NCBI GenBank assembly: GCA_963786905.1
Contig: CAWBBA010000015.1
Coordinates: 22,740 to 86,739, forward strand
Reading direction: 5' to 3'
DNA from: an uncultured delta proteobacterium
GTDB taxonomy: Bacteria > Desulfobacterota > Desulfomonilia > Desulfomonilales > Desulfomonilaceae
DNA: 64,000 nt
Each line of letters begins with the position of its first letter. Within the stretch, counting starts at the first letter, position 1. Shown in pieces: positions 1,740 through 43,345 of this stretch. The position numbers were made by a program, and so were the translations under genes. A model generated the notes under the pieces. The model saw only the letters and a list, made by a program, of their open reading frames with translations. It was not told the DNA's origin and searched no databases.

Positions 1740-1848
1740 AGGGCCGACAATTGCCCTGCGGAGCGACTACACTCAGAAGCTCGGCCCCCCTACTATTACC
1801 ATCTTCTAACAATCCAACATTGTTTCTTGGCCGGAACGCCGAAACCAA

Positions 1849-4800: not shown

Positions 4801-5433
4801 ACGAATGGGATCGTCCGGAGCTGCTCGTCGGCCTTCCACTGACGCAGGAGCGTGTAGCCGTCCATAACCGGCATCAGCAGGTCGGAAATGATCAGGTGGG
4901 GCGGCGCCTGGCGCGCTCTGGTCAGCGCCTCGACACCGTGGCGGGCCTCGTCCACGACACAACCGTGACCTTGTAGGAGAGCACGCAGCAGGTAGAGGTT
5001 CTCTTGCTTGTCGTCCACGATGAGCACGCGGATCATGGGGTAGCCTCCTCGACCAGGCGAGGGAAGAAAGCGTTCGACCTCGGCTACGAACGTCTCCGGA
5101 TTGATGGGTTTCTCGATGTAGCCTTCCGCTCCTGCGGCCAAGACCTTCTCCCTGTCGCCGACCATGGCGTAGGAGGTGACAGCGACGATGGGAATGGATT
5201 TCAACCGGGGATCGCTTTTCAAAGAGCGGGCCACGGCGTAGCCGTCCATTCCCGGCAACTGGATGTCGAGCAGTATCAAGTCGGGGCTGACTTTGGCTGG
5301 CCAATTCCAGGCCCAGCGAACCGGACACTGCGGGAACGACTTCATGACCGCACTGCTCCAGGAGGAAGGTTAGCAGGTAGCGGTTTTGCTCATTGTCTTC
5401 GATAAGGAGGATTCTCGCTTTCATGATTTGCAC
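1849..5433 (-). pseudogene. Large hybrid sensor kinase (REC-REC-coiled coil-PAS repeats-HisKA-HATPase-REC) broken by many frameshifts
   Basis: Minus-strand ORF fragments tile without gaps. They are: 4597..5433 ([18 protein letters not shown] receiver start); 3690..5345 (DLILLDIQLPGMDGY, second REC ISDLLMPVMDGY, PAS domains); 3667..3858, 3074..3634 and 2905..3201 (PAS); 2859..3077 (His[13 protein letters not shown]); 2534..2908 and 2209..2553 (HATPase [16 protein letters not shown]); 1983..2198 and 1849..2052 (C-terminal REC LVILDLIMPEMGG). Confidence 0.7.
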
Positions 5434-7853
5434 GATCCTTGTAGCGGGAAGGTGAAGCTAAACGTGCTGCCTTTCGTCCACGTGCTTTCAGCGCTAATAT
5501 CGCCGCCCATCAAATCCGCCAGGCGTCGGCAAATTGCCAGGCCCAAGCCCGTCCCTTCGTAATTTCGCGACAGACCGGATTCAATCTGCCGGAACGGTTG
5601 AAACAAGGTCGTCAGATCATCGGGCTTTATCCCTATGCCGGTGTCGGAAACGCGGAGTCGGACGGCAGGCTGTCCGGAAGTCCCTCCGGACGATCTTGAA
5701 ATCGGGAACCAGCTCGGTCTTCAGAGCGACCTCACCGCTATCGGTAAACTTGATGGCATTATTGAGAAGGTTCAGCAGAATCTGTTCAACACGGCGCTGA
5801 TCGCCGACGGCCTCGCCAAGCCCCGGCACGATATTGCGCACGAAGGGCAAGACCTTTCTTTTCAGCCAGCGGTGCTACGATGCCTACGACCTTGTTGATA
5901 GATTCGCGCAAGTCGAACCGCTCACTGGCGACTTCAAGTTGCCCGGCTTCGATCTTGGAGATGTCGAGCACGTCGTTGATGAGCGCCAGCAAGTGACGGG
6001 AACTGGAGCGGACCATTTCGAGCTGCTTGGCCTGCTCCGGATTCAACGGCCCGGCCAGCCCTTGTAGGATGATTCCGGTGAAGCCGATGATTGAATTGAG
6101 CGGAGTGCGCAGTTCGTGCGACATAGTGGCCAGAAAGGCGGATTTGAGATTGGTCGGCCGCTTCGGCTCGCTCCTTGGCATGTGCCAATTCCCTGGTGCG
6201 CTCGGCCACGATCCGCTCCAACTCTACAGCGTGGCGGTGTGATGCCTCATTGATTTCTTCCTGCGCCCGTTTAAGTTCCGTGATGTCCGTGCCGATGCTC
6301 AGAACCTCGGCAATGTTTCCTCGCTCATCCAACACGATTCTGTTGGTCCAAGCTATCACGACGCGCTCTCCACTGCGCCGCATGTTTTCATTGACGTTTC
6401 GTTCGAACGCTTTTGGGTCCGCGAGAATCTGATCCATCAGAGGACCCAGGTCATCACCACTACTGTCCGTTACAGGGACGATCGTGCCGATAACATGGCG
6501 TCCGACGATCTCCTCGGAGGAGTAGCCAAAGAATTTCTGACCGAACTCGTTCAGAAGGTGATCTTTCCGTCGCGTGTCCAGCGCAGAATGATGCTGTTGG
6601 CGTGCTCCACAAGCTCGCGGATACTTTCGTTCGCTCTCCGCTAGCCGTGCTTCGGCCTTCTTACGGTCGGTGACGTCTCGCACCCAGACCTGAATGCCAG
6701 GTTCTTCGTCAAAAGAGAACGCCTTAGCTCTGATCTCTCCATCGAGCACAGTTCCTTCCTTTGATTGGAGTCTGACCTCATAGTGGTCTATCGCGCTTTC
6801 CCCGCGCAACCGAGCTTGCGCTCTGGCACGAGTCATTGGCTGGTCTTCAGGGTGATAGATAACCCAATGGTCCTCTCCAATGAGTTCCCCTGGTTCGTAG
6901 CCCAGCATCTCATGCAGGGGTTTGTTGGCGAAGATTATCTTGGTTCCTTTCTGCAAGAAAATCCCATCAAAACTGTCTTCCACGAGGGTCCTATACCTCT
7001 GCTCGCTCTCCCTCAGCGCTGCTTGAGCTTGATCAAGCTCGCGCCGGCGCCGCCGGATTTTCCAGTGGCCCGCACCGAGCGACAACAGTGCCAAGCCTCC
7101 GATACCGCTTTGGGCGCGCAGTTCCTCGCGTTGGTAATAGCTAAAGATCGCCTCGTCGTCCTTCATTGGCACGACCGCCCTGATACCACCGGGGATGGCC
7201 CCCTCTTGGTAGCCCTGTACCGAGTAGCATTTCAGGCATCTCGCCATGGTCTTAGTGGGTTGCATGAGCCGCAGGTGGGGCTGGCCTTCGATTAGCTCCA
7301 CTGAACTGACTTCGGCCGCGCCTCGCTCGAAGGCTTCCAGCGCTTTCCGCTCCCTAGCGACAGGGTCGTTTTCCGGCCGGATTGGCTTGAGGCTGGTGAT
7401 ATGGTCGCGATGCTCGTAGAGTTCTTTGCCCAACTCCTGCACCTGCCGGATCATGTGGGCAGGGTTCATGAGGGTCAGCGGATGGCCAGACCGTGTGGTA
7501 ATGTCCCGATCGGGTAGGTGCACCAGGTAACGATTCAGCGGAGTCTTGCCAGTTGTCGGCACATACACACCGCCGTGCATGTCAGCACCTTGACGGTACA
7601 GGAGGTCCTTTTCGAAGCAGGACCGGGCACCGATCCGCGCCATATCCTTGACCGTCCGGCGTATATGAGCCGTGGTCCACCACAAGGCCAGCACGACCGC
7701 CAGCGCCCAGATGCATGCTCTCATTGGAGCCCAACCGGGAATTAGGGGCAGGAGCAAAGGACCGGCATCGCTATGCGTAATAGCAAATCGCGATTTCGTT
7801 GTAATGGATTTCATTGAACACCTCAATTGCAGAGCAGCAGTTTGGTGTTCCAC
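5421..7853 (-). pseudogene. Sensor histidine kinase with DUF3365 (Tll0287-like) domain, PAS x2, HisKA and HATPase; frameshifted
   Basis: ORF 5934..7853 carries the DUF3365-like region (CLKCYSVQGYQEGAIPGGIRAVVPM), a TM segment and PAS domains. 5786..6181 holds HisKA (MSHELRTPLNSIIG). 5617..5850 and 5421..5606 hold HATPase ([13 protein letters not shown]). These pieces are in different frames. Confidence 0.7.
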
Positions 7854-8095
7854 AGCGCCTGTTCCATCATTCAGCGCTCGGGCTCATCCCTGAACACAAG
7901 GACGACTCACGATGCAAGATGATACAGCGCGACTCTTTGAAAGGATGACTGATTTGTCGACGACGCTGGTGTGTCCAGCTTTCTTCGTATTCTACTCCAG
8001 ATATTATGAGACGGTTATCCTATTTTGGAAGTCTTGGCACCAGTAAGGGGTCGCCGGCGGCCCCCCGGACCCGAAAAAGTTCCGCATCGTCTCGT

Positions 8096-8410
8096 TCATG
8101 ACCCGACAGAGGCAGAACCGTCTTCATATTGATGAATAAACGCGTTTCCCCCCGTTTCTGAGCGTACCTCTTTACACGCTCCTCGGTCAATCACAATCGT
8201 GCGCGTGGCTGCTGACCCGAACACAACTTGCCAGTATAGGGCCAAGGGGAAGGCTGGGGCCACATGGACTTGTCGGTTTCGATCATGAAAGACTTTCGCT
8301 CCTACCTTGATCAAACGCTTGAGGAGCCACTTTATTGGCCGTTTCACCTCCTCGCCGCGGAGATAGAATTGCCGGAGCATTGGCAGGAGATTGTATGAAG
8401 CGTGCCCAAA
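8096..8410 (-). mobile_element. C-terminal remnant of a DDE transposase (IS4/IS1380-like tail); no catalytic domain or terminal repeats present
   Basis: The translation IKWLLKRLIKVGAKVFHDRNRQVHVAPAFPLALYWQVVFG resembles the conserved ...LRxKLIKIGAKVxxHxRxxxxxxAxxxP... tail of these transposases, recalled from memory. The upstream part is replaced by the regulator gene that ends at 8412. Confidence 0.4.
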
Positions 8411-8411
8411 T

Positions 8412-9095
8412 CTACGGCAGCATGTAACCCACGCCCGAGACTGTGACAATGTAACGTGGTTCCGCAGGATTGTCCTCAAGCTTGGACCGCAAGTGCTGAA
8501 TGTGAACGTCGATTACACGACTGTCCCTGGACAATTCGCCTTCGGGCCATAGGGCCTGTCGGATCACGGTCCTGTTCAAGACTCGGCCTGCATTCCTGGC
8601 CAGCAACAGGAGGAGAGTGAATTCACGTTGCGTGAGACTGACCTTGACGCCCCTCTTGCAGACGGTGTTTTTTCCCACGTCTATTTTCAAATCACCCAAC
8701 TCGATAGTCTCAGCAGGGCTAATAACCTGTCCCTGTCGCCGTAGACAGGCCTTCATTCTGGCCGCGAGTTCCAAGTAATCGAAAGGTTTAACCAAATAAT
8801 CGTCAGCCCCGGTTTCCAGCCCCAGCACTTTATCGGGGAGACGATCCCTCGCGGTCAACATGATTATGGGGATGTTGGATCTTTCTCGGATGGACCTACA
8901 AACCTGAATGCCGTCAATATCGGGAAGGGAAAGGTCCAATATTATTAGGCCAACAGGAACCCTTTCGAACGCCTGCAACGCTTCCTTACCGGTTGAGGCC
9001 GTGAAAACGCTATATCCATCCAGTTCGAGATTGTCCCGAAGGATTCTGAGAATGTCGGGATCATCATCCACTACAAGTATTTGCCCAACCGCCAT
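8412..9095 (-). CDS. OmpR/PhoB-family response regulator (REC plus winged-helix)
   Basis: MAVGQILVVDDDPDILRIL...LIILDLSLPDIDG...LTARD...DDYLVKPF followed by the winged-helix LTQREFTLLLLLARNAGRVLNR...YIVTVSGVGYML. The likely start is ATG 9095, directly after the kinase stop. Confidence 0.9.
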   Translation of the reverse strand: MAVGQILVVDDDPDILRILRDNLELDGYSVFTASTGKEALQAFERVPVGLIILDLSLPDIDGIQVCRSIRERSNIPIIMLTARDRLPDKVLGLETGADDYLVKPFDYLELAARMKACLRRQGQVISPAETIELGDLKIDVGKNTVCKRGVKVSLTQREFTLLLLLARNAGRVLNRTVIRQALWPEGELSRDSRVIDVHIQHLRSKLEDNPAEPRYIVTVSGVGYMLP

Positions 9096-9097
9096 AA

Positions 9098-10772
9098 TTA
9101 TCCCTTCTGGACTCGCTTCTCTACTGAGGCCATCTTTGTCGGAAGAGAGAAAAAGAAGGAACTCCCCTCTCCCGGCCGGCTTTGTACCCATATGTGCCCG
9201 TGATGGGCTTCGACGAGACCTTTGCAGATCGCGAGCCCTATGCCAGAAGACCCTTTGTGGATCTTGCTATCCTGTTGCCCGCCAACCTGATAGAATTTCT
9301 TGAATATAGCCTCATGGTATTTTTCTTCTATACCGGGCCCGGAGTCTTGCACGCAGACCTCAGCCGACTCGCCGTCCGATGCGTTGATCCTGACGAAAAC
9401 CTTGTTTCCGGGTGGTGAAAATTTCACAGCGTTGGATAGCAAATTGGTGAGGACCTGGTAGATCCGCTGTTTGTCGAAGACCATACGCAAGTCCTCGGGC
9501 ACTTCCAGCACCAGTTCAACAGATCTCTTTTGAGCCACGACATTCTGGGAAAGAACCGCATCCTCGGCCACGTCTTTAAGGGAAGCTTCCTCAAGGTCCA
9601 GCTCCAGTTTGCCTGATTCGATCTTCGAGTAATCGAGAAAATCTATGGCGACCTTTATGAGGTGATCGGTATTTCTCTTTATGATGTCCAGATATGTAGG
9701 ATCCCCGCATGACGCCTTTCTGTCCAGAATGTCCGCCGCGCCTTTTATGTTGGTGAGAGGTGTTCTCAGCTCGTGAGAGATGTCGGAAAAAAAATCTGAC
9801 TTTGCCTGGTTAAGCCGTTCGAGGTCCAGGTTGGCTGCTTCAAGGCTTCTGTTAGTCTCCGACAGGTCGTGAGTGGCCTCGGCAATTTTCCGCTCCAACT
9901 CTTCGTGCTGGTTTCTTCATTTCTTCATCTAAAAGATAGCAAAAGTCCGCAATTTCTTTAAGTTCGTCCCCATGCCCACCGTGGTTCTCAACCTGTTTAC
10001 CGACAGTCATGCGGCTCATGGCCGCCCTGATATCGTTTAACCGCTTGAAGACCAGAGATTGCGCTGCAACAAACACCAGGATCACCAGCGATCCAGCGAA
10101 CACCATCCCCCCTCCCAGCAGAATGGCCCTGTTGTGATTGATTGCCGAACGGGCTTCATCCATCGGTATGAAAACGCTGAGGCACCCGCCCACATCCCCC
10201 GGCTTGTAACCTTGAGAGGTGTGGCACTTCACGCAATTCTCGTTTACGTACAAAGGCGCAACATAGCGAAGGACAGATTTGCCGTTGACCTGTTCGGTCC
10301 TGAACGTCTCGTCCTTCTCAGACGACCTGAAAAGTCGGAGAGCCTCCAACTCGAACGCGTCGGGAGCGTTCTCCTGGTTCAGTCTCTCGGTATTCGTAAG
10401 TTTAAAGGAATACAGGCCGCTCTTGAGGGCGCGCTCTGAAAGGAGCCTGGTCATAACTGAAGGGCTGATCCTTGTGTACGCGTTTCCGTCTGAACCGTGC
10501 ACATCGGGTTGGTTCAGGAAAGGATTTGAGCTAACCTCCCCGGTCTTCGGAACGAGTACGCCGTTGTGATCCGCCACCCACTGGCGGGTAAGAACAATCT
10601 GTTTGTGGAGTATTATTGCTTGCTTCTTGACCTGTTCCATAATATGGTCTTCCTGCTGACGCGAAAACCAGACGAATACTACAACGAATATTACGGTTAT
10701 GGTCAGGGAAGTGGCGACCAGGAATTTGAAAGAAACCCTTTGGCCGAGAAATATCTTCAACCGGTTAACCAT
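9098..10772 (-). pseudogene. Sensor histidine kinase with TM segment, DUF3365 c-haem domain (CVKCH), HAMP-like linker, HisKA and HATPase; one frameshift
   Basis: ORF 9852..10772 carries YVNENCVKCHTSQGYKPGDVGGCLSVFIPMDEA (CxxCH codons at 10221-10235). ORF 9098..9898 carries ISHELRTPLTNIKG and GSSGIGLAICKGLVEAHHG. The frames differ and the junction is near 9855-9895. Confidence 0.8.
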
Positions 10773-10923
10773 TTACACTGTATCCATTCATTATCGTTAT
10801 CAAAACAAGTTAGTGCGCGGTTGGAAACATAACTGTTGTCCCTTTGGCCATCAATGATGGTAGCGGGGGCGTGAACCGGAAGCGGCATTTTTTCGGGAAG
10901 TATTATGCCCAGGTTCGAAACAA

Positions 10924-10962
10924 CTTTACAGGATCTTTACAAACTTTTACAGCATCCTTACG
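10924..10962 (+). promoter_or_regulatory. Four direct repeats CTTTACA / CTTTACA / TTTTACA / CCTTACG at 10-11 bp spacing; candidate OmpR-family binding array
   Basis: TTACA cores at 10926, 10937 and 10947, and TTACG at 10958 (spacing 11, 10, 11). The array lies in the divergent intergenic region between the kinase/regulator operon and the octahaem cytochrome gene, about 10 bp upstream of a weak -10-like CACAAT/CAATAT. Confidence 0.4.
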
Positions 10963-11132
10963 GCAACGCGTGTCACAATATGAACCAAATGGGCCAAAGG
11001 TTTAGCCTCCACCACAGCGGGGCAAGGAATCCAGCGGGTCGTCCTCATTTAGGGATGACCCAGCGGAGATCCGGCAAACCTCGGAAGTAACATGTTTATG
11101 AAAGCACTATATCGATACGGGGAGTGGATGCC

Positions 11133-12494
11133 ATGAGAAGAATTCTCATCCTGGTCGCACTGGCGCTTTTTGTCTGTTCCTACGCGGCTGATGCCGCGGT
11201 AAAAGTTGACCCGAAATTGTATGGGTCGCCCGAGGGGCAGGTCTGCATCAAATGCCATGAGCTGAAGTCCCCTGGCCTGTTTAAGCTGTGGCGGTCCGGA
11301 AAGATGGGGCAGGCGGGGGTCAACTGCTACGACTGCCATAAGGCAGAGAAGAAGACAGACAAGATACCGGGGGACCCGGACGGGTACGACCACCGGGGCT
11401 TCTGGATCGCTACGCTGGTCAGCCCAAAAGACTGTTCCCGGTGCCATAAGGAGCAGTTCGACCAGCAGCAGGTTTCCCACCATGCTAAGGCAGCGGATAT
11501 TCTGAATTCTTCTGACAACTACCTTGGCACGGTGGTCGGTGGACCGGCCGCGGTGAATACAGGGTGCCGCCAGTGCCACGGCTCCAACATCAAGGTACTC
11601 AAAGATGGGAAACTGGATCCCGATACCTGGCCTAATACCGGAATCGGCCGCATAAACCCTGATGGAAGTAAAGGGAGCTGTTCCGCGTGTCACACCAGGC
11701 ACCGTTTTTCCAAGGAACAGGCCAGGCGCCCGGACGCGTGCGGAAAGTGTCATCTCGGTCCGGATCATCCCCAGATCGAGGTTTTCAACGAGAGCAAGCA
11801 CGGCATCCTCTACCAGGCGTTCAGGGACAAGATGAACATGGACAAAGGGGAGTGGGTAGTCGGGGTCGACTACCAGGACTCAGCCACATGCGCTACATGT
11901 CATATGGGGGCCACGCCAAATCAAGCGGCGACTCACGACGTGGGCCAGCGAATCTCCTGGACCCTGCGGCCTGTGGTCTCCAAAAAGCTGGAGCATTGGA
12001 AAGACCGGCGGGACAAGATGAAAGACGTATGCCGCCAGTGCCACGGGGACTTCATGGTCAACGATTTCTACAGTCAGTTCGATGGTCTCGTGGACTTGTA
12101 CAACAATAAGTTCGCTATTCCTGCTATGAACGTCCGCCAGAAACTGATGGACACGGGCAAACTCACCAAGGCAGACTTCGACGACAAGCTGGACTGGATC
12201 TATTACGAACTGTGGCATCACGAAGGCCGCCGCGGACGGCACGGCGCTGCCATGATGGGTCCGGACTATGCATGGTGGCATGGTATGTATGAGGTGGCAA
12301 AGCATTTCTATACGTCTTTTCTCCCTGAAGTCGAGAGAATCATGGGCGGAAAGGATGCGGCAATGCCTATCCTTAACGAGTACGTCTTCAAGGATCCCCA
12401 GCATCGCTGGTATAAGGACGGGATGAGCAAGGAAGAACTGCAGAAGATAGAGCAGTTCTATCAGCAAAGGTACGGCGGCAAAGAGGCCAAGTAA
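11133..12494 (+). CDS. Secreted octahaem cytochrome c of the hydroxylamine oxidoreductase (HAO) family
   Basis: Eight CxxCH motifs (CIKCH, CYDCH, CSRCH, CRQCH, CSACH, CGKCH, CATCH, CRQCH). There is a signal peptide MRRILILVALALFVCSYAADA and a C-terminal YYELWHHEGRRGRHGAAMMGPDYAWWHG region typical of HAO-like proteins. GGGGAG lies 8 nt upstream of ATG 11133. Confidence 0.7.
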   Translation: MRRILILVALALFVCSYAADAAVKVDPKLYGSPEGQVCIKCHELKSPGLFKLWRSGKMGQAGVNCYDCHKAEKKTDKIPGDPDGYDHRGFWIATLVSPKDCSRCHKEQFDQQQVSHHAKAADILNSSDNYLGTVVGGPAAVNTGCRQCHGSNIKVLKDGKLDPDTWPNTGIGRINPDGSKGSCSACHTRHRFSKEQARRPDACGKCHLGPDHPQIEVFNESKHGILYQAFRDKMNMDKGEWVVGVDYQDSATCATCHMGATPNQAATHDVGQRISWTLRPVVSKKLEHWKDRRDKMKDVCRQCHGDFMVNDFYSQFDGLVDLYNNKFAIPAMNVRQKLMDTGKLTKADFDDKLDWIYYELWHHEGRRGRHGAAMMGPDYAWWHGMYEVAKHFYTSFLPEVERIMGGKDAAMPILNEYVFKDPQHRWYKDGMSKEELQKIEQFYQQRYGGKEAK

Positions 12495-12531
12495 GACTCG
12501 TCTGAGGCCACGTTAATACAAGGGCGCCTTC

Positions 12532-13134
12532 ATGAAAGGAACCACTAGAATCCGGAGACTTGTTCTGCCGGTTCTGATCCTGGGCCTGATCACACTGTGC
12601 CTGGGATTGGGAACCGGCTTGACCCTGGCCCAATTCCAGGACCGGACCCAGCCGTCGCCTGAAGATATCGAACGCGAATCCGATCAGGAATTTCCGGTCC
12701 CGTTGACACCCCTGCCGAAGACCATCACTCCGTGCCGTGCTTGTCACGGTCCGGAGAAGGATTTTCCCGTAAACTTCCAAAGGCGGGAAGATTTGCTTGT
12801 CCATAAGAATGTAAAGCTCAGCCACGGCGGCGTGCGAGTCTGGTGCCTGGACTGCCACAGCCCTGATAATCGCAACTATCTCTTGCCGCTGAGTGACGGC
12901 AAGCCAATTGATTTCGAGCACTCGTATCTTCTCTGCGGCAAATGCCACGGCACCAAGTACAGGGACTGGCGAAACGGCATACACGGTAGAAGGACCGGCA
13001 ATTGGAACGGTGAAAAGACCTACTACCGGTGCGTGAGTTGTCACGATCCGCATTCGCCCAAATTTAAGCCAATCGAGCCCATGCCCCCTCCCAGGAAGCC
13101 GTGGACCCCAAAAGAAACCAAGGCCAAGCACTAA
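12532..13134 (+). CDS. Membrane-anchored tetrahaem cytochrome c
   Basis: One N-terminal TM helix (LVLPVLILGLITLCLGLGTGL) and four CxxCH motifs (CRACH, CLDCH, CGKCH, CVSCH). The first haem motif lies about 40 residues beyond the helix and has no CxxCHxM. Confidence 0.75.
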   Translation: MKGTTRIRRLVLPVLILGLITLCLGLGTGLTLAQFQDRTQPSPEDIERESDQEFPVPLTPLPKTITPCRACHGPEKDFPVNFQRREDLLVHKNVKLSHGGVRVWCLDCHSPDNRNYLLPLSDGKPIDFEHSYLLCGKCHGTKYRDWRNGIHGRRTGNWNGEKTYYRCVSCHDPHSPKFKPIEPMPPPRKPWTPKETKAKH

Positions 13135-13146
13135 AGGTTCAGAGCC

Positions 13147-14124
13147 ATGAGCGATCAGACTGATAGTTCCGGTAAAGACAAATCAAACTCCGCAAGTGAA
13201 TCTGACTCCGAAATTGCGAAGAGACCGGATTCTCAATCCGCGGAGAATCGCAGCATGCTCCCGGATCGACGCACGTTCCTAGCCGGAGCTGCGAGTGTCC
13301 TGGGGATGATGGCGGTCAGCTCGTGCTCGTGGCAGGAATTCTTTCAGCAGCAGTTTCAAAGAATGACCAAGAAGGAGATCGAAGAGACGGTCGCCCGGCT
13401 TCAGGAGGACTACAAGAAGAAATACGGAAAGGAATTCGTGGTCGGGGCAGAATCCCCCATCGACGGAACCCTCTTTCGGTACGGGCTTGATATTCAGCGT
13501 TGCATCGGCTGTCGCCGGTGCGTGTACGGCTGCGTGGAAGAGAACAACCTGTCGAGAGACCCGCAAATCCAATACATAAGAGTCCTCAGGTTCAAAGACG
13601 GAAACATGGATCTCGAAGAATCGGACATCTACTACGAACCTGAAGAGGTGCCGGAGAAGGGCTATTACTACATGCCGGTGCAATGCCAGCATTGCGCCAA
13701 CGCGCCTTGTACCAAGGTGTGCCCTGTGCGGGCAACATGGACAGAGCCCGACGGCATTGTGGTGGTCGATTACAACTGGTGTATCGGATGCCGCTACTGC
13801 ATGGCAGCGTGCCCGTACATGGGCCGATGGTTCAATTTTTCCGACCCTGGTATTCCAAGCGAGCAGGTGAATCCCAAAACTCACTATCTGGGGAATCGTC
13901 CGAGAATGCGCAATGTGGTGGAAAAGTGCACTTTTTGCATTCAGAGAGTCCGCAAAGGGATATACCCCAAATGCGTCGAGGTCTGCCCGGTCGGAGCCCG
14001 CAAGTTCGGCAATCTCCTCGATCCCAACAGCGAAATCAGCATGATCATAAAGACCAAGAGGGTCTTCCGTTTGAAGGAAGATCTGAACACGCAGCCGAAA
14101 TTTTATTACTTCTTCGCTACTTGA
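13147..14124 (+). CDS. Tat-exported four-cluster [4Fe-4S] protein (NrfC/PsrB/DmsB-like)
   Basis: Twin-arginine motif DRRTFLAGAAS. Cys clusters are CIGCRRCVYGC, CQHCANAPCTKVCP, CIGCRYCMAACP and CTFCIQRV...CVEVCP. Confidence 0.85.
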   Translation: MSDQTDSSGKDKSNSASESDSEIAKRPDSQSAENRSMLPDRRTFLAGAASVLGMMAVSSCSWQEFFQQQFQRMTKKEIEETVARLQEDYKKKYGKEFVVGAESPIDGTLFRYGLDIQRCIGCRRCVYGCVEENNLSRDPQIQYIRVLRFKDGNMDLEESDIYYEPEEVPEKGYYYMPVQCQHCANAPCTKVCPVRATWTEPDGIVVVDYNWCIGCRYCMAACPYMGRWFNFSDPGIPSEQVNPKTHYLGNRPRMRNVVEKCTFCIQRVRKGIYPKCVEVCPVGARKFGNLLDPNSEISMIIKTKRVFRLKEDLNTQPKFYYFFAT

Positions 14125-14127
14125 CAG

Positions 14128-15386
14128 GTGGGGAACGTCATGCAGAGATCCGGATTCCTATTCGCAGCAGCCAGGAGGCTCACGACAGGTCCCCGAATAT
14201 ATTACATTTGGGTTCTGGTGCTGCTCGTCACGGCCATTGTCGGCATCGCGGCCTATACCAGGCAGCTTCAGCAGGGCCTGATCGTCAGCGGTATGACGAG
14301 CTACGTCTCCTGGGGATTGTACATCGGGAACTTTACGTTCCTGGTCGGTGTGGCCGCGGCCGCGGTACTCCTCATCATTCCAGCCTACCTCTATGACTTC
14401 GGCCCCATCAAAGAGGTCGTCATCGTCGGAGAAGCGCTGGCAGTGAGCGCGCTTTGCATGTGTCTCATGTTCGTCACGGCCGACTTAGGACGTCCTGACA
14501 GGGTTTGGCATCTCATACCAGGTCTGGGCATATTAAATCTGCCGCGGTCCCTCCTCGGATGGGACATAGTGGTTCTGAACGGGTATCTGTTTCTGAACCT
14601 CTTCATTCCCGGGTACTTGCTGTGGAACGCATACCATCAAAAGCCTGAAAACACGAACTTCATCCTTCCCTTCATTCTTCTTTCCATCCCCTGGGCGGTC
14701 AGCATACACACCGTAACCGCGTTTATTTACAATGGTCTCGTAGCGCGACCATTCTGGAACGCTTCCATTCTGGCCCCAAGATTTCTGGCGTCCGCTTTCT
14801 GTTCCGGACCGGCGCTGGTAATCCTCCTGTACCAGATCGTCAGAAAGTACACTCAAATTTCACGTCAAAGACGAAGCGCTCTTCAAAATCGCGGAGATGA
14901 TCTCGATCGCGATGGCGGTCAATCTGTTCTTGCTTGGAGCGGAATTCTTCAAGGAACTCTATTCGGACACCCATCATCTGTCCCCTTTGAGATACCTTTA
15001 TGCCGGCCTTCACGGCAAAGGGGTGCTTATCCCGTGGATATGGACTGCTTTCACATTCAACATCATTGCATTCTTCATTTTTCTCATACCGGTTACCCGC
15101 AAGAATTTCGCAACTCTCAACGCGGGGTGCGTTCTCATCATAGTGGGTATCTGGATCGAAAAAGGGATGGGCCTGATCATTCCGGGATTTATCCCTGCGC
15201 CATTAGGCGAGGTCTGGGAGTACCTGCCGACAAGGATCGAAATCCTCGTGATCCATGGGGATATGGGCTATCGGACTGCTCATACTCACCCTGATACTGA
15301 AAATCATTATTCCCATCGAAACCGGGGAGTTCACTAAGGCGACGCAGATCGAGAGAGCATACCCACACGTTGGAGTACATCCATGA
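14128..15386 (+). pseudogene. NrfD/PsrC-like polytopic membrane quinol-interacting subunit, with at least 2 frameshifts
   Basis: ORF 14128..15294 reads as a multi-TM protein until about 14870. ORF 14897..15337 continues it (MISIAMAVNLFLLGAEFF...). A third frame gives the C-terminus IWAIGLLILTLILKIIIPIETGEF, ending with a TGA that overlaps the next ATG (ATGA at 15383-15386). Confidence 0.7.
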
Positions 15387-16231
15387 ATACGAAGGCCGAG
15401 GCAGGCATTGTTGTGAGCAGAAGGCCGCGCTTCAAAGCAAGACTTTGGGCTCTCGCTGTGATCGCCAGTGCTTCGGTGCTCATGACCGCCTTGCCGCCGC
15501 CTTCTGTGGGAGCGGACACTGCTCCGGCCAAGGATTTGAGCACTCTTCTCAACGATCTCAACAGTCCTGACCCGGCAGTGGCGTCTCAAGCCGCGACCGA
15601 GATCAAGAACCAGCACGCGAAGCAAGCAATACCTGCTCTGGCCCAGGCAATTAAGCATCCTAATGAAATCGTGCGACTCACGGTGATCGAGGCGCTTTCA
15701 GAGATCGGTCCCGACGCGGCCCCCGCGGTTCCGGCTCTGGCTGAGGCGCTTAAGGACAAAGACCCAATGATCAGGGAAGCTGCGGCATTGGCCTTGCTCA
15801 GCGTGGGGAGGCAGAGCACCGGTGCGGTGCCCGCGTTGGTATCCGCCCTGGGTGACGAAAACAAGCGGGTCCGCGACAGCGTGGTCTTGGCCCTTGTGAA
15901 TATCGGTGAAGCTGCGGTCCCGGACCTGATTAAGGCCCTTGAGAGCAAAGATCAGTCTGTCAGATCCTCGGCCACGACAGCTCTGGGAAGGATCGGAGGC
16001 CCGGCTGTCCCGGCCTTGGTGGCCCTGCTCAAGAAGGGAGACCCTCACAGCTCGACGGCGGCTTCAAAAGCCCTGGGAGAAGTGGGAGCCCCCGCAGTCG
16101 CGCCGCTGATAGAGCTGTTAACGACCGCAAAAGCGGAAGCTTCGAAACTTGCCGGAGAAAGCCTGGCGGCCATCGGTGCGCCGGCCGTCCCTCCCCTGGT
16201 AGATGCATTGCTGAAAAGGAAACAGCAGTAA
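15383..16231 (+). CDS. Exported HEAT-repeat (PBS-lyase HEAT-like) protein
   Basis: Hydrophobic N-terminal signal followed by about 7 repeats of the pattern xxVRxxAxxALGxIGxxAVPALxxAL. Confidence 0.75.
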   Translation: MNTKAEAGIVVSRRPRFKARLWALAVIASASVLMTALPPPSVGADTAPAKDLSTLLNDLNSPDPAVASQAATEIKNQHAKQAIPALAQAIKHPNEIVRLTVIEALSEIGPDAAPAVPALAEALKDKDPMIREAAALALLSVGRQSTGAVPALVSALGDENKRVRDSVVLALVNIGEAAVPDLIKALESKDQSVRSSATTALGRIGGPAVPALVALLKKGDPHSSTAASKALGEVGAPAVAPLIELLTTAKAEASKLAGESLAAIGAPAVPPLVDALLKRKQQ

Positions 16232-16345
16232 GCGGCAGACCTGTTGTGACCTACACTTTGAAATGACCGCCGCGACCGGTATTCAGACACTGGACATTGA
16301 AAAGTTTGTCGGAACATGGCCTTCGAAGTGAAGGAGGAGAAGAAG

Positions 16346-16858
16346 ATGAAAAAGACAGTCTATTCCCTGATGATCCTGTCTCTCTTTCTCTGCGTGCCTA
16401 TGCAGGCCACGACTCAAGACAAGGATTGTCCCGACTGTCCCAAGAGCTCAACTACCAGCACTTCTCTCGATGCCAAGTGGAAGGAGTTCACCCCGCCAGC
16501 GCTGGCGCCGGGAGAGCGGCCTGATTGCCACCGCGTGCAGTTCGGGAAACAGGACTGTGCCGAATGCCACAAAAAGGAGACCCCCGAGAGCTACAAAGCT
16601 GGTTGGGTTCCAAGCACGGCATCAATAGTGTGAAGTGCGGCATTTGTCACGGTGACGTGAACAATTATCGGGCCAGGCCGGACAGAGTGGTCTGCATTGG
16701 ATGCCACTCCGCGCAGGTCCATAACATGCCTGCCCAGGCTCTTGGTGACCAATTGCTCGTTCTGCCACAAGGGCCATTGGTTCACGGTCCACAAGATAAA
16801 AGATTACGAGAAGTTCTCTCCCGGAAGAGAGCAGCGTTTCAAAGTGCCCGGCTTCTAA
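16346..16858 (+). pseudogene. napM: NapM-like periplasmic tetrahaem cytochrome c, 2 frameshifts
   Basis: AAGGAGG precedes ATG 16346, followed by the signal peptide MKKTVYSLMILSLFLCVPMQA. The four haem motifs CAECH, CGICH, CIGCH and CSFCH are spread over three frames. The last frame reads VTNCSFCHKGHWFTVHKIKDYEKF and ends with TAA at 16856-16858. Confidence 0.6.
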
Positions 16859-16895
16859 GCGCTCTAGACCCGTTATCCGACTTTTGGAGGACACC

Positions 16896-19288
16896 ATGAG
16901 TATGACTCGAAGAGAAATGATAAAGTTGTCGGCGGCGGCATTTGCCGCAGGAGCCTTGAATATACCGTTCGCCGGACGTGCTGACGCATCGGGGGAGCCC
17001 ATGGAAGTGGACAAATGGGTCAAGGGCACATGTCGCTTTTGCGGTACAGGTTGCGGCGTCTATGTGGGAGTCAGGAAGGCAAGTGGTCGGTATCCGGGGT
17101 AATCCCCAAGCCGCGACCAATTTCGGGTTCCTATGCGTCAAGGGATTCAAAGGTTACATGAGCATGTACCACCCGGACCGGCTGAACTATCCCTTGGTTA
17201 AGGCAGAAGACGGAAAGTTCAAGCGAGTCTCCTGGGACGTGGCGCTCGACACTGTGGCGAACAAGTTCAAGGAACTGCAACAGAAGTACGGGAAGGACTC
17301 GGTGGCCTTTTACGGGTCCGGTCAGTGCATGACCGAAGAGAGCTACACCTTCAACAAGCTCTGGAAAGGCGGCTTCGGTTCCAACATGGTGGAAGGCAAT
17401 CCGCGGCTGTGCATGGCTTCGGCTGTGGGCGGGTACGTCACGACTTTCGGCACAGACGAGCCCGCAGGGTCCTACGCTGATATCGAGAAGGCGAAGACTT
17501 TTTTCATCGTGGGTTCCAACATGTCGGAGTGCCATCCGATTATTTTCCGCCGCGTAGCACGACAGAAGCTCAAAGATCCGGACAAGATCAACATCATCGT
17601 CTGCGAGCCTAGGCTCACTTCCACTGCACGGATTGCGGACGTCTGGCTCCCCGCGGACCCGGGCACCGATCTCGCGGTTTTTCATTGCATGGCCCGAGAA
17701 ATCGTCAAAAACAACTGGATTGATAAGTGGTACGTGGAGAACCTCTGTAGATTCACCACTGGAACAGAAGTCGGATTTCAAGACTTATGCTCAATTCCTC
17801 GAGCAGTTCACTCCTGAAGCGGTGGAAAAGACTGACACGATGCCCTGCGGCCAACATCAGGGAGGCGGCCCGGCTGTTCGGGACCCAGGGACCGACCATG
17901 AGTCTGTGGACCATGGGTCTGAATCAGACGGACGAGAGGCGTTTGGGCCAATAATCTGATTCACAATCTCCACCTGATCACGGGCAATATCTGTAAGGAA
18001 GGAGCAGATTCCTTTTCACTGACGGGACAACCCAACGCGTGCGGCGGCGTACGTGAGACGGGCTCCCTGTGCCATCTCCTTCCAGGGACCCGACCTGTGG
18101 CGAATGCGGCGGCCAGGGAGCAGGTCGAGAAGGCGTGGAAAATCCCCGCGGGGAAAATTGATCCCAAGCCGGGGTTCCACACCATGGAGATGTTCGCAAA
18201 GCTGGGAGCAGAGAACGACGCTTCCAAGCCGCTCAAAGGAATGTTCGTCACCACCACGAACCCTGCTCAATCGCTACCGAACGGCCACAAGTACTGGAAA
18301 GGAATGAAGGACGGGTTTCTCGTAGTTGCCGACATCTTCCCGACACGAACCACGCAGTTCGCCGACGTGATATTGCCCGCGGCCTTTATTTACGAGAAGG
18401 GCGGAGTTTTCGGCTGCTCCGAACGCCGCAGCCAGCTCACCGGAAAGTGCGTAGAACCTCCCGGTGAGGCTAAACCGGACCTCTGGATGGCCGCGCAGCT
18501 TGCCAAGCGCATGGGACTGGAAAAACTCATCCCGTGGAACGGCGATGATGCTCCTGCGAGTTAACAAAATGGCCTGGGATGATTACCGGGAATGCGTAAA
18601 GATGACCGAGCACACGCTTTACGGCATAACCTACGAACGGCTCCAGAAATCGGAAGAAGGGCTCCAGTGGCCGTGTCCAGACGACAAGAGCCCTGGAACG
18701 GCCATACGCTACGTGCGCGGCAAAGACCCACTCATGAACATGCCCGAAATCGTCAAAGTGCCGCCACAGGCTCTAATCTATTTCTACGGGGATCAACAGC
18801 ACGAAGGCAAAGCGAACGTGTTTCTGAGGCCTTACAAGGGGCCGGAAGAGCCGCCGGACAAGGAGTATCCGTTTTTCCTGACCACCGGCCGTGTTATCGA
18901 ACAGTGGCACAGCGGCACCATGACCATGCGGGTGCCGGAAATAGCTCGCTCCCAGCCCAATGCTTATGTGGAGATCAATCCGAAGGATGCGGAGGCGTAC
19001 GGCATCAAGAACGGCGACATGGTGAAAATGATCAGCCGCCGCGGCTTCAACATATTGCCTGCCCGGGTGGTGAAGATGTCGCTGCCCGGAATTCTTTTCG
19101 TCCCGTGGTTTGATCAGGATTGGGATCGGATGATGAACCGGGTGACCATCGACGCGTTTGATGACGGTTCTAAACAACCTGAGTTCAAAATTTGTGCGGT
19201 ACGAATCGAACGGGTGGGTGATCCCAAAGACGTGGCGGACATGACGATCATCTCCAGTGTGGACGCCCCATTTCCGGAAAAGGTGTGA
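16896..19288 (+). pseudogene. napA: Periplasmic nitrate reductase catalytic subunit NapA, at least 5 frameshifts
   Basis: Tat signal MSMTRREMIKLSAAAFAAGAL and the N-terminal FeS motif KWVKGTCRFCGTGCGV. Fragments 16884..17102, 16978..17817, 17633..17959, 18097..18564 and 18464..19288, plus an unlisted frame (PAANIREAARLFGTQGPTMSLWTMGLNQ), tile a full NapA. Confidence 0.85.
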
Positions 19289-19525
19289 CGAGACGATCGT
19301 AATCGTTCACCGCGGAAATCGCGAGATCGCAGAGAAAGCGTTTTTCTGTGTTTGTTGCTGAGCAAGAAGCATAGTGGATTGCGAGTGAATCACCTTGAAC
19401 ATGTGCATTGGCTGAGTCTTCGTGTCCCGATACGTATTAACTCATTTGAGCTCATTATCTCTGCGATCTCGGCGCACTCTGCGGTAAATCCTGCTTTCTG
19501 ATCCAAAGCTCCGGAGCTTTCCCCA

Positions 19526-19828
19526 ATGGTCATCACCGGCAGTGCCCTTCTTATCAAGCGCGGCGCGGACATAGAGGTCCTGGAGCGGCTTAAGCAGTTC
19601 CCTGAGGTGACTTTCCACGTGAAGTCGGAATCGGGAACCGAACTGGTTGTGAATTTCGAAGCTGAGGACCACGATTCGTTGGAGCGGCTCTGCACAAGGA
19701 TTAAGGAGGCGATTCCCGAAATCATCGAAATAGCCCATGTGTATGTGAATTTTGAAGACGAGATCGAAAAGATCAAGTCGGGAAAAATTGTTAAGGGATC
19801 GCTTAACAAGCCGAAGTTCGACGAATGA
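19526..19828 (+). CDS. napD: NapD-like chaperone
   Basis: 100-aa protein (LIKRGADIEVLERLKQFPEVTFHVKSESGTELVVNFEAEDHDSLERLCTRIKEAIPEIIEIAHVYVNFE) with the NapD-type pattern, positioned after napA. Confidence 0.6.
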   Translation: MVITGSALLIKRGADIEVLERLKQFPEVTFHVKSESGTELVVNFEAEDHDSLERLCTRIKEAIPEIIEIAHVYVNFEDEIEKIKSGKIVKGSLNKPKFDE

Positions 19829-19875
19829 TGCTGGTGGTTAGGAGGTAAGAATTCAGTTATCGGCGGCGAAAGTTT

Positions 19876-20177
19876 GTCATTGCGAGCAAAGCGAAGCAAT
19901 CTTATCGTTTATACTGACTGCCAAAGATAATGTCCCTTTGACCATGAGGCGGGCACGTTGCAGGGGAGCTGGTTCGGGTCTGCCTTGTTTGTCATTCCCG
20001 CGAACGCGGAATCCAGAAGGCCCAAATAACAACAATGGTAAACCCTGTTCAGACTTTCCCGGACTGGATTCCCACGTTCGCGGGAATGACGGGATTTGGC
20101 CTCTCTGAATCGGACAAGAATTCTGGCAATGGCTATAAGCTCTGAGATTGCTTCGTCGTTTCACTCCTCGCAATGAC
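19876..20177. repeat. Nested palindromic (REP/MITE-like) element
   Basis: Outer arms are GTCATTGCGAGCAAAGCGAAGCAATCT (19876-19902) and GAGATTGCTTCGTCGTTTCACTCCTCGCAATGAC (20144-20177). Inner arms are GTCATTCCCGCGAACGCGGAATCCAG (19991-20016) and CTGGATTCCCACGTTCGCGGGAATGAC (20064-20090). Confidence 0.8.
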
Positions 20178-20205
20178 GCGGACGCTACAATGTCCGCGTA
20201 AGTGA

Positions 20206-21018
20206 ATGGTAATTTCAGGAGAACAACGAACCTTGAGTTCAGGTTGGATAAATAGTCTTCTGAAACGGTTTCTTGGTGAGCGCGAGAATCCTCTGGCAAA
20301 TCAGTACAGCGAGAACCGTCTTCGCCCTCCCGGAGCAGTGGACGAGAAACGATTTATGGCGCTTTGCATACGCTGCAATCGCTGCCTGGAGGTCTGTCCG
20401 TACAACTCAATCCGGCGCGCGGGCCTGGGCACAACTATGGGAACGCCTTACGTTCTGCCGCTGGAGAAGGCTTGTTATCTTTGCATGGCCTGCTGCCGCC
20501 TCTGTCCTACAGGGGCACTGGACAGGCTCCTGAGCAACCCCGAGGGCGTTGCGATGGGCAAAGCCAGGATCGACACCTCCATCTGCTACAGCCACCTCTT
20601 TGTGGACCATGATGTGCTGCCTGAAAACGCAGGCCAAAAGATCGGTGCGCTTTGCAACACGTGCTACAATGTTTGTCCGCTTCCCGACAAAGCCATAGCG
20701 CTGAAGCAGAACCTCTTCCCTGTAATTCTGGACGGTTGCGTAGGTTGCGGTATCTGCACCGAAAGGTGCCCTACCCGTCCCAGACGGGCGATCAACGTGA
20801 TTCCCGCGGGTGTGGGGCGGGTTGACGAGGCAGGGTTCTATTTTCGCAAGGCCCGGAAACACTTTGAGTCAGCGGTGCGTGTGGAAAGGGACGGGGCATC
20901 AGGGGCCTTGAAAGGGGAGCAACTTCTAGAGCAGAAATCCTTAATTGAAGGGACCAAGGAACAGCCGCAATTCGAATTCCCATACCAGGTTCCAAAATTC
21001 ATAGAAGGTTGGGATTGA
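20206..21018 (+). CDS. napG: NapG-like multi-cluster 4Fe-4S ferredoxin
   Basis: LRPPGAVDEKRFMALCIRCNRCLEVCP, CYLCMACCRLCP, CNTCYNVCP and CVGCGICTERCP. The start codon is uncertain. Confidence 0.7.
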   Translation: MVISGEQRTLSSGWINSLLKRFLGERENPLANQYSENRLRPPGAVDEKRFMALCIRCNRCLEVCPYNSIRRAGLGTTMGTPYVLPLEKACYLCMACCRLCPTGALDRLLSNPEGVAMGKARIDTSICYSHLFVDHDVLPENAGQKIGALCNTCYNVCPLPDKAIALKQNLFPVILDGCVGCGICTERCPTRPRRAINVIPAGVGRVDEAGFYFRKARKHFESAVRVERDGASGALKGEQLLEQKSLIEGTKEQPQFEFPYQVPKFIEGWD

Positions 21019-21857
21019 TGTACGGGCCGTACAGAAAAACAGTTCAGATACTGGTGTTCGGGATCATGTTCGGGATCCCGTTACTCAATTTGTATGAAAT
21101 ATATGCAGTGACCGGTACTTTCTACGCGGTCAACATCGGGGGGCTCGGCATAGCTGATCCAGTGGTAATCCTTCAAGCGATATTTGCATCGGGCGAACTC
21201 ACAGTGCCATTGCTGGGCGCAGCCCTTTTCCCCGTCTTTATTGCGCTGTTATTCGGCAGAATCTGGTGCGGCTGGATGTGTCCTTTTCACCTGCTGGCCG
21301 ACGTCGCGGCGTGGTTACGCAGACGATTCAGAGGAAAAGGCTCGCGGCTTGCCAGGGATGAAAGCTTGGTGGTCGCGGATTCATTCAAGGCCAACACTTG
21401 GCGCTATGGCTTCCTCGCCGCGGGAACCCTCGCGGCCGGTGCTATCAGCATCCCCGTCCTGAACTACGTGAGCGCTCCCGGTATTCTGAGCACGGAAGCG
21501 ATGATACTGGTCAAAGAACGGATGGTGTCACTGGAGTTCTCTTTCATAGCCCTTCTTTTCCTCCTCGAACTGTTAATCTTACCCCGTTTCTGGTGCAGGC
21601 TCTTCTGCCCCACCGGCGCTTTTATTGCAGTCTTTCGCGTCCCCTTCACTCTCCGGGTCGGGACGAGTATAAGAACTCCCAAGGCCCCATGTTGCAAGGA
21701 GAACCGATGTTCAGGCGCGTGTCCGATGGGTCTGGCGCCTTTCCGGGAGGGGAACAATCTGCTCTGCACGAACTGCGGCCTGTGTATCGATGCGTGCCGA
21801 GCGGCAGAAGGTTCTGGTAGGCTGAGATTCCAAGGCTTTCAGGCATTTGATCGGTGA
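21009..21857 (+). CDS. napH: NapH-like membrane FeS protein
   Basis: Four TM helices with CGWMCPFHLL and RFWCRLFCPTGA motifs, and a C-terminal CSGACPMG...CTNCGLCIDAC. Overlaps the end of napG. Confidence 0.8.
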   Translation: MGLMYGPYRKTVQILVFGIMFGIPLLNLYEIYAVTGTFYAVNIGGLGIADPVVILQAIFASGELTVPLLGAALFPVFIALLFGRIWCGWMCPFHLLADVAAWLRRRFRGKGSRLARDESLVVADSFKANTWRYGFLAAGTLAAGAISIPVLNYVSAPGILSTEAMILVKERMVSLEFSFIALLFLLELLILPRFWCRLFCPTGAFIAVFRVPFTLRVGTSIRTPKAPCCKENRCSGACPMGLAPFREGNNLLCTNCGLCIDACRAAEGSGRLRFQGFQAFDR

Positions 21858-41286: not shown

Positions 41287-41301
41287 GACAGATACTCCTC
41301 C

Positions 41302-43331: not shown

Positions 43332-43345
43332 GTCGGTAGTTCCTC

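Follow-up and report, generated by a model that had tools for sequence, protein, structure and literature searches.

A conserved Nap and HAO-type cytochrome gene cluster predicted to support nitrate ammonification without NrfA in an uncultured Desulfomonilaceae bacterium

Within a 64-kb stretch of DNA from an uncultured Desulfomonilaceae bacterium (the window), we studied the block at positions 8412 to 21857, in which an octahaem cytochrome of the HAO family (gene hao) is encoded next to a periplasmic nitrate reductase (Nap) operon. This block is a genuine conserved respiratory cluster composed of two units, a sensor/regulator pair with the HAO operon, and napMADGH. We favor the reading, with a probability of roughly 0.6, that Nap and the HAO-type enzyme support nitrate ammonification without NrfA, that the cluster is conserved and that the one-base indels seen in this copy are assembly errors. 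The argument draws on gene content, conservation, synteny, a repeat motif and residue alignments, all of which were observed directly. The idea of Nap followed by an HAO-type enzyme is an already published hypothesis, encountered here in a new lineage. New are the linkage of a HEAT-repeat gene and a two-component system to hao, the variable presence of nap, a TTTACA candidate operator and a tryptophan at the cross-link position of the HAO-family protein.

Gene content and conservation of the cluster

Genes were called from a listing of open reading frames (ORFs) combined with Pfam and NCBIfam scans. An earlier reading of the sequence had described the block as a self-contained nitrate-to-ammonium island. 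Pfam and NCBIfam recovered every gene named in this original prediction at the position it had given, and its account of the strands held as well, with the respiratory genes on the plus strand and the regulators divergently oriented on the minus strand. The features of the block are given below. Where an orthologue is named it belongs to locus L002, a 3.98-Mb Desulfomonilaceae contig (ctg94864l, ERZ21869602) that has the identical gene order and in which every gene is intact.

8412-9095, minus strand: OmpR/PhoB-family response regulator (Pfam Response_reg 1.5e-30 and Trans_reg_C, winged helix, 2.3e-25; generic OmpR-family match in NCBIfam)
9098-10772, minus strand: sensor histidine kinase with a periplasmic Tll0287-like haem-c domain (PF11845 9.5e-20; one CxxCH, CVKCH, at 10235), HisKA and HATPase_c
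10925-10965, plus strand: four direct repeats (TTTACA/TTTACA/TTACA/TTAC, 10-11 bp spacing) between the kinase gene and hao, candidate regulator binding site
11133-12494, plus strand: periplasmic HAO-family octahaem cytochrome c, candidate nitrite/hydroxylamine reductase (eight CxxCH; PF13447 5e-26)
12532-13134, plus strand: tetrahaem cytochrome c with an N-terminal signal or anchor, putative carrier from the FeS protein to HAO (four CxxCH)
13147-14124, plus strand: Tat-exported 4Fe-4S protein of the NrfC/DsrO/QrcC type (Fer4_11 and related Pfam matches; Tat motif DRRTFLAG)
14128 to about 15386, plus strand: NrfD/DsrP-type integral membrane quinol/quinone-interacting subunit (PF03916 1.9e-30; NCBIfam DsrP 2e-90)
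15383-16231, plus strand: exported HEAT-repeat protein with about six repeats (HEAT_2 7e-54)
16346-16858, plus strand: NapM, tetrahaem cytochrome of the Desulfovibrio-type Nap (four CxxCH spread over two frames)
16896-19288, plus strand: NapA, periplasmic molybdopterin nitrate reductase (PRK13532 and TIGR01706 as fragments; Molybdopterin, Molybdop_Fe4S4 and Molydop_binding)
19526-19828, plus strand: NapD chaperone (PF03927 1.1e-6, 29.1 bits against a cut-off of 28; 58% identity to the L002 orthologue)
19845-20214, no strand assigned: nested palindromic sequence of about 370 bp in the napD-napG gap, resembling a miniature inverted-repeat transposable element (MITE), containing 44-nt and 19-nt inverted repeats
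20206-21018, plus strand: NapG ferredoxin-type subunit (NCBIfam NapG 8e-30, MauM/NapG 1e-22; several Fer4 Pfam matches; 68% identity to the L002 orthologue)
21018-21857, plus strand: NapH membrane ferredoxin-type quinol dehydrogenase subunit (NCBIfam NapH/MauN 6e-31, NapH 1e-29; Fer4_5; 66% identity to the L002 orthologue)

The kinase gene and hao are separated by an intergenic gap of 360 bp, and hao (from 11133) is encoded beside the nap operon (napM from 16346) on the same strand. Since the GC content of the block (0.541) equals that of the window (0.538), the block is not a compositional island. HAO, both cytochromes, the FeS protein, NapA and NapM are periplasmic, judging from the Tat and Sec signals read from the protein sequences. 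The nap genes are of the Desulfovibrio type: NapA carries the expected domains together with a Tat motif (TRREMIK) and a cluster motif (CRFCGTGC), napM lies upstream of napA, and napD, napG and napH lie downstream. The matches to NapA models are fragments, full-length cut-off scores being out of reach owing to the indels. A six-frame scan of the window revealed neither NapB nor NapC and no further haem-motif clusters.

The synteny of the cluster was followed by tblastn of L002 proteins against 82 fetched loci and by blastn against the window. Throughout the close clade, hao and the genes for the tetrahaem cytochrome, the NrfC-like and the NrfD-like protein always occur together. The complete order hao-cytochrome-nrfC-nrfD-HEAT followed by nap was found in L001, L002, L005, L012, L013 and L016, while L010 carries nap without the HEAT gene; nap thus stands beside the HAO module at seven of the 11 informative close loci. 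Four close relatives (L003, L004, L006 and L028) lack nap at the locus and keep the HAO module together with the HEAT gene, and L028 retains the kinase and regulator genes as well. We conclude that nap is a variable cassette and that the term self-contained island was too strong. The alignment to the window jumps over nap from 16426 to 21965 in L003 and from 16232 to 21973 in L028 (window coordinates). In both, the slot (15302-16428 in L003 and 15114-16038 in L028, about 1 kb) holds a gene on the opposite strand for a membrane protein that, as read from its sequence, is a candidate isoprenylcysteine-carboxyl-methyltransferase (ICMT)-like protein. L003 still aligns into the first approximately 80 nt of napM, and this putative remnant hints that nap was replaced or deleted rather than never present.

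The HEAT gene follows the nrfD-like gene at 10 of the 11 informative loci, including the four that lack nap. Its retention in these nap-less loci and its absence from the nap-bearing L010 assign the HEAT gene to the HAO module. A synteny comparison had been proposed along with the original prediction, and its outcome is that the HEAT gene travels with the HAO module and not with nap. More distant HAO homologues (48-63% identity, from many phyla) occur without the partner set of the HAO module. As a separate observation, homologues with 55-61% identity in L014, L019, L020 and L022 (Nitrospirota, Dissulfurispiraceae and Methylomirabilota) adjoin molybdopterin oxidoreductases. The neighbor in L020 and L022 (Nitrospirota and Methylomirabilota) is a NapA-like gene with 41% identity. 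L014 and L019 have in the same place a less closely related molybdopterin protein, after which come genes of the NrfC-like and NrfD-like type.

The window was also searched for other nitrite reductases. Haem-motif and Pfam scans of the 64 kb bore out the claim that NrfA, NirS and NirK are missing from it. A six-frame scan for CxxCH and CxxCK over the whole window found no multihaem frames outside the block, and a pentahaem NrfA with CxxCK was not found in the window, where the single CxxCK (20377, minus strand) stands alone and is a chance match. About 70 larger ORFs across the window, including all in or beside the block, were scanned with Pfam and gave no Cytochrom_C552 match above the gathering score and no match to cd1 or copper nitrite reductases or to other nitrogen-oxide reductases. 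The sole Cytochrom_C552 match was the HAO protein itself, with 21.6 bits against a cut-off of 24.1.

The HAO-family cytochrome, its partners and its regulation

The hao gene is intact in the window and its product shares 82% identity with the L002 orthologue. The protein has eight CxxCH motifs, similarity to solved structures and the distal Asp-His pair, and thereby belongs to the HAO family. In a profile search of the PDB, the octahaem cytochrome IhOCC of Ignicoccus hospitalis (4QO5) was the closest solved structure (E 4.9e-60, with the alignment reaching from haem 2 to haem 8 and into the C-terminal helices), followed by Nitrosomonas HAO (about 6e-28), Kuenenia HOX (9e-26), kustc0458 (5e-24) and HDH (3e-17). 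The region of the GxDW/GPDY loop aligns with IhOCC too; unlike the window protein, IhOCC is archaeal, membrane-associated, 521 residues long and has other genomic partners. We know of no linkage of IhOCC to nap. Asp214 and His215 (GPDHPQ) of the window protein lie opposite Asp267 and His268 (VDHNN) of Nitrosomonas europaea HAO (NeHAO), and both residues are invariant in clade alignment A1. In a wider search, 1621 clusters at 50% identity matched with E <=1e-3. Homologues number in the thousands and come from Desulfobacterota, Nitrospirota, Acidobacteriota, Gammaproteobacteria and other groups, the nearest (80-96% identity) being from Desulfomonile and from metagenome-assembled genomes (MAGs) of Desulfomonilaceae.

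Oxidative HAOs carry a P460 haem that is cross-linked to a tyrosine of the neighboring subunit (Tyr467 of NeHAO), and we located this position in the window protein. Two C-terminal fragments of ammonia-oxidizer HAOs were used, obtained from a protein-collection search with rebuilt NeHAO residues 236-404. The PDB numbering was fixed through Asp267 and His268, and the site is the Tyr of GGWTYTEGWGP. An L-INS-i alignment of 63 rows (the window protein, 60 family representatives and the two fragments) pairs HVGLAHVNPGGWTYTEG with RHGAAMMGPDY-AWWHG and sets NeHAO Tyr467 opposite Trp384 of the window HAO. An invariant tyrosine, Tyr382, sits two residues upstream of this tryptophan. Only five of the 63 rows have Tyr in the Tyr467 column, two of them being the ammonia-oxidizer fragments, and the family mostly has Gln, His or Trp. 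In this alignment the window protein thus lacks the residue that marks the cross-linked oxidative subgroup and, because Trp384 stands opposite Tyr467, it is predicted to be without the P460 cross-link. The 169-residue NeHAO query itself returned 36 candidates, all of them fragments of at most 289 amino acids, and no full-length ammonia-oxidizer HAO; the word-indexed search appears to miss canonical ammonia-oxidizer HAOs, or the collection appears not to hold them.

The gene for the tetrahaem cytochrome adjoins hao in 13 of the 13 close-clade loci whose contig extends there. Its product gave weak Pfam multihaem matches, among them a partial NapC/NirT match of 18 bits that is below the cut-off, and did not match the NrfH model of NCBIfam. 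A PDB search found no solved-structure homologue and returned only spurious matches to designed Kelch-repeat proteins. The FeS protein matched DsrO (2e-53), QrcC (9e-44) and NrfC (2e-35) in NCBIfam, all under the cut-offs, and the L002 orthologue of the NrfD-like subunit finds its best solved relatives in the ActC subunits of alternative complex III (ACIII). The partner set is therefore closer in sequence to DsrO/DsrP and ACIII ActC than to Nrf. A quinol-oxidizing partner of the CycB type (a membrane tetrahaem cytochrome of the NapC/NrfH family) is not encoded; the NrfC-like and NrfD-like subunits stand in its place. In the NrfABCD system of Escherichia coli, the quinol dehydrogenase NrfD, an FeS protein exported by the Tat route and a multihaem carrier serve a periplasmic multihaem catalytic subunit. 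The partner set in the window parallels NrfBCD in its logic. It differs from E. coli Nrf in that the catalytic subunit is an octahaem HAO-type protein and not a pentahaem NrfA with CxxCK, and in that the NrfC and NrfD models score far under their cut-offs, with DsrO and DsrP scoring higher.

The HEAT-repeat protein has a signal-like N-terminus, consisting of a basic stretch and a hydrophobic stretch followed by VGA|D. No Cys or His is conserved among 11 aligned orthologues, and searches past the close orthologues returned generic HEAT-repeat proteins only, with no functional lead. After correction of the frame, the nrfD-like gene ends in a TGA that shares bases with the HEAT start codon (ATGA, 15381-15386), which suggests translational coupling of the two genes; in L002 the pair is instead 25 bp apart.

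The kinase and regulator form a two-component system, the kinase combining PF11845 and its CxxCH with HisKA and HATPase_c, and the regulator combining a receiver with a winged helix. The intact 546-residue kinase of L002 has the same domains. The regulator is 65% identical to its L002 orthologue, and its likely start is an internal ATG at 9095. Upstream of hao, the repeat block TTTACAnnnnnTTTACAnnnnTTTACAnnnnnnTTAC is the single strongly conserved block in an alignment of the kinase-hao intergenic region from 10 loci. The TTTACA pattern is unique in the window, where 0.01 matches are expected by chance. Across the fetched loci (1.2 Mb) the exact pattern occurs at nine loci, once in each, 160-210 bp upstream of hao and nowhere else, and the repeats are found with one or two mismatches in L007 and L013. 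They are missing from L006 and degenerate in L004, the two loci without the adjacent kinase and regulator genes. Binding sites of OmpR/PhoB-family regulators are usually direct repeats one helical turn apart. The TTTACA repeats are thus probably the operator of the adjacent OmpR-type regulator, as predicted from the sequence. Scans for promoters and terminators gave counts that were not above those in shuffled sequence.

Proposed pathway and competing explanations

A closely similar arrangement has been described in Thermosulfurimonas dismutans and Dissulfuribacter thermophilus, which convert nitrate to ammonium without nrfA (PMC5276818). In addition to napMADGH, their 11-gene cluster has two genes whose periplasmic products are of unknown function, and a locus of four genes that encode a multihaem cytochrome homologous to HaoA, an NrfD-family protein, a 4Fe-4S protein and one more cytochrome c. 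The authors proposed that this locus reduces nitrite, with a role in sulfur metabolism as the alternative (PMC5276818). The window shares with these clusters napMADGH without NapB and NapC, a four-gene HaoA-like locus and an intervening gene for a periplasmic protein of unknown function. It differs in having one intervening gene (HEAT) and not two, in the adjacent haem-c kinase and OmpR-type regulator, and in the mesophilic host lineage. Clusters of nap and hao have also been reported in Deferribacteres (PMC6896113), and in cable bacteria a periplasmic multihaem cytochrome that is sister to the epsilon-Hao clade follows the nap operon (bioRxiv 10.1101/2020.02.22.960823). The epsilon-Hao or reverse-HURM (reverse hydroxylamine:ubiquinone redox module) systems of Nautilia profundicola and Campylobacter (PMC3701875, PMC8042395) likewise have an octahaem HAO near nap that lacks the cross-linking Tyr, and reduction of nitrite and hydroxylamine has been proposed or demonstrated for them. 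The Tyr-less epsilon-HAOs of Epsilonproteobacteria reduce nitrite and hydroxylamine in vitro, according to the account of Haase 2017 given in PMC8042395. Electron input in these systems is by a NapC/NrfH-type CycB, whereas the window encodes a tetrahaem cytochrome with NrfC-like and NrfD-like proteins. HAOr of Kuenenia stuttgartiensis (kustc0458/0457; PMC8042395) is also a Tyr-less HAO-family reductase with a dedicated small cytochrome partner; unlike what we propose here, it makes NO for anammox, its partner is a dihaem cytochrome, and it is distant from the window HAO (E about 5e-24).

From the family assignments and from these published epsilon-Hao and nap-hao organisms we infer substrates, products and the direction of electron flow. 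The regulator would bind the TTTACA repeats upstream of hao. Menaquinol would be oxidized at the NrfD-like subunit, and electrons would pass from there to the periplasmic FeS protein, the tetrahaem cytochrome and the octahaem HAO, which would act as a reductase and convert nitrite (and hydroxylamine or NO) to ammonium. NapG and NapH would draw electrons from quinol and NapM would carry them to NapA, which would reduce nitrate to nitrite in the periplasm. Jointly, the HAO and Nap units would bring about nitrate ammonification without NrfA. The sequence Nap then HAO, as put forward in the original prediction, remains the most likely reading, being consistent with a cluster that is conserved and intact in relatives, with the Asp-His pair, with Trp in place of Tyr and with the same layout in published organisms; for this clade, we infer the reductase role of HAO by analogy.

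Several points weigh against this reading. As nap-less relatives keep the HAO module, the module is independent of an adjacent Nap, and the window scan found no TTTACA repeats upstream of napM. Deferribacter desulfuricans carries napMADGH and hao, yet stops at nitrite (PMC6896113), and a Tyr-less anammox HAO yields NO and not ammonium in vivo (PMC8042395). The gene families and arrangement are the same as in the Thermosulfurimonas/Dissulfuribacter cluster when compared by the description in PMC5276818, not by sequence. The placement of Tyr467 rests on a low-identity alignment, and an hhalign comparison of the clade with the fragments ended at query residue 350, short of the site. The lack of nrfA in 64 kb tells little about the whole genome, and a literature search on nrfA in Desulfomonilaceae genomes found nothing specific. 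In addition, multihaem enzymes are promiscuous on nitrogen and sulfur substrates, and the FeS and membrane partners score highest against DsrO and DsrP.

The first of these points also favor a different role, in which the HAO module serves the detoxification of nitrite, NO or hydroxylamine, or acts as an NO-forming nitrite reductase under the haem-c sensor, with the link to Nap being incidental. The module and HEAT gene persist without nap, in L028 along with the kinase and regulator, the candidate operator is found upstream of hao only, and both the anammox enzyme (PMC8042395) and D. desulfuricans (PMC6896113) fit such a role. We regard it as a serious though unlikely alternative, since a dedicated quinol-linked input of three extra subunits fits a respiratory reductase better than a detoxifier, nap adjoins the module at most of the informative loci and NrfA-less ammonifiers have the same layout (PMC5276818). 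Sulfur compounds (sulfite, tetrathionate, thiosulfate or polysulfide), instead of nitrogen oxides, appear improbable as the substrates of the HAO cytochrome with its DsrOP-like partners. Such a role would suit the DsrO/DsrP scores, the sulfate-reducing and sulfur-cycling Desulfobacterota to which the host belongs, the alternative raised for the equivalent locus (PMC5276818) and the substrate promiscuity noted in PMC13510729, but the catalytic subunit is of the HAO family with its Asp-His pair and is not MccA, Otr or MccSep, and linkage to nap recurs in the clade, as does linkage to NapA-like genes in other phyla. The selenoprotein MccSep (PMC13510729) was considered as a sulfur-reducing identity and rejected, as it belongs to a different, pentahaem family. 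Highly improbable is an oxidative direction, in which hydroxylamine would be oxidized and electrons would reach quinone by way of cytochrome, FeS protein and NrfD-like subunit, as in the hydroxylamine:ubiquinone redox module of ammonia oxidizers. NrfD-type modules such as Qrc can run either way and source databases call many homologues hydroxylamine dehydrogenase, but Trp and not Tyr occupies the aligned cross-link position. The nearest solved relative is IhOCC, which we take to lack the cross-link, and not one of the cross-linked bacterial HAOs. An oxidative role also fits poorly with an anaerobic host lineage and with linkage to a nitrate reductase. Moreover, HAOs without the Tyr and its cross-link have been reductases in the cases tested so far (PMC8042395). 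Beyond these alternatives, it is possible, and we suggest it tentatively, that everything from the kinase and regulator through the operator and hao to the tetrahaem cytochrome, nrfC-like, nrfD-like and HEAT genes constitutes one autonomous unit under haem-sensor control. This would be a distinct HAO-type quinol-dependent nitrite/NO/hydroxylamine reductase complex with DsrJOP/ACIII-like input and with the HEAT protein as a dedicated subunit or assembly factor, operating with or without Nap as a widespread and overlooked route to ammonium or NO in soil and sediment Desulfomonilaceae.

The preferred reading of nitrate ammonification by Nap and HAO also includes a judgment on the state of this copy. 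A frameshift-aware alignment of the window with the intact L002 proteins (kinase 546, NrfD-like 405, NapM 170 and NapA 795 amino acids) located 11 one-base indels that break four of the 12 genes:

9914: kinase, a one-base insertion; 61% identity over residues 1-543 of the 546-residue L002 orthologue, no stops
14854 and 15251: nrfD-like gene, two one-base insertions; residues 1-399 of 405 aligned, 78% identity, no stops
16597 and 16741: napM; 170 of 170 residues of L002 NapM aligned, 72% identity, no stops
17075, 17083, 17773, 17828, 17928 and 18562: napA; 795 of 795 residues aligned, 84.5% identity, no stops

The indels upstream of 17400, where the alignment to L001 ends, are likewise seen as indels, at the same sites, when the DNA is aligned with a 90%-identical contig. 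If they were real, the cluster would be decaying, with the kinase, nrfD-like, napM and napA genes as pseudogenes, and the original prediction had raised such decay as a caveat. In favor of this, the 11 indels fall within 13.4 kb, in contrast to the genes at 22-38 kb (thiF, purD, iscU, nifS, M24 peptidase, ADH and deoC), which appear intact, so that the breaks are unevenly spread. Furthermore, nap is dispensable in close relatives, a palindromic element is inserted between napD and napG, and a segment of 6.7-8.1 kb is inserted just upstream. On the other hand, the full-length realignments contain no in-frame stops, and the identity of the broken genes (61-84.5%) is no lower than that of intact neighbors (HAO, 82%). 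Nucleotide identity to L005 is even, at about 89%, across the block. Comparable breaks occur elsewhere in the window, as judged from partial Pfam domains: kdpA is in at least four pieces, kdpB and kdpD are split, and corC and the genes for a thiolase, a 3-hydroxyacyl-CoA dehydrogenase, an enoyl-CoA hydratase and an acyl-CoA dehydrogenase are truncated or split. These lie at 38000-45200, 49170-50070 and 56500-62300, and sensor genes at 2.3-7.9 kb are split too. Related long-read MAG loci bear breaks of their own at different positions. Since in-frame stops are lacking, identity is not lowered, similar breaks occur window-wide and relatives are broken elsewhere, the 11 indels most likely arose as errors in the assembly consensus and not by decay, and the patchy density of such errors points to coverage or polishing that was uneven. 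Genuine decay of the cluster is in our view quite unlikely, although this particular copy may conceivably have been inactivated.

For the window itself the result is mostly confirmatory, adding a further instance of a published arrangement from an error-prone assembly. If the HAO module is an ammonifying nitrite reductase, surveys of DNRA (the dissimilatory reduction of nitrate to ammonium) that rely on nrfA only would overlook Desulfomonilaceae and many other lineages, and surveys that use hao as a nitrification marker would miscount them. The conserved candidate operator, the dedicated haem-c sensor kinase and the linkage of the HEAT gene to the HAO module offer handles for experiments.

Insertions and other sequence in and beside the cluster

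The MITE-like insert between napD and napG is missing from L005, which aligns to 19844 and resumes at 20215, and from L002, where napD and napG are 30 bp apart. It consists of 44-nt outer inverted repeats of the type GTCATTGCGAGC...GCTCGCAATGAC and a 19-nt inner hairpin (GTCATTCCCGCGAACGCGG), and its motifs were not found elsewhere in the window. The annotated napG ORF takes its first three codons from the insert, which might also alter read-through into napGH.

Elsewhere in the window, a putative 492-residue ORF at 54831-56309 (plus strand) has no Pfam match and overlaps several minus-strand ORFs. An ORF at 8096-8479 was considered as the remnant of an insertion sequence (IS) transposase and dropped, having neither Pfam nor NCBIfam support.

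Upstream of the block, the window carries the 6.7-8.1 kb segment (266-8406 or 1707-8406) that is extra relative to close relatives. It contains frame-broken genes for PAS, receiver and kinase proteins, among them a second Tll0287-like kinase (5934-7853), which has no haem motif. L001 and L028 join window position 265 directly to 8413, and L005 joins 1707 to 8406. The regulator gene of L001 thus borders directly on the rpsP-rimM-trmD-rplS-rnhB region.

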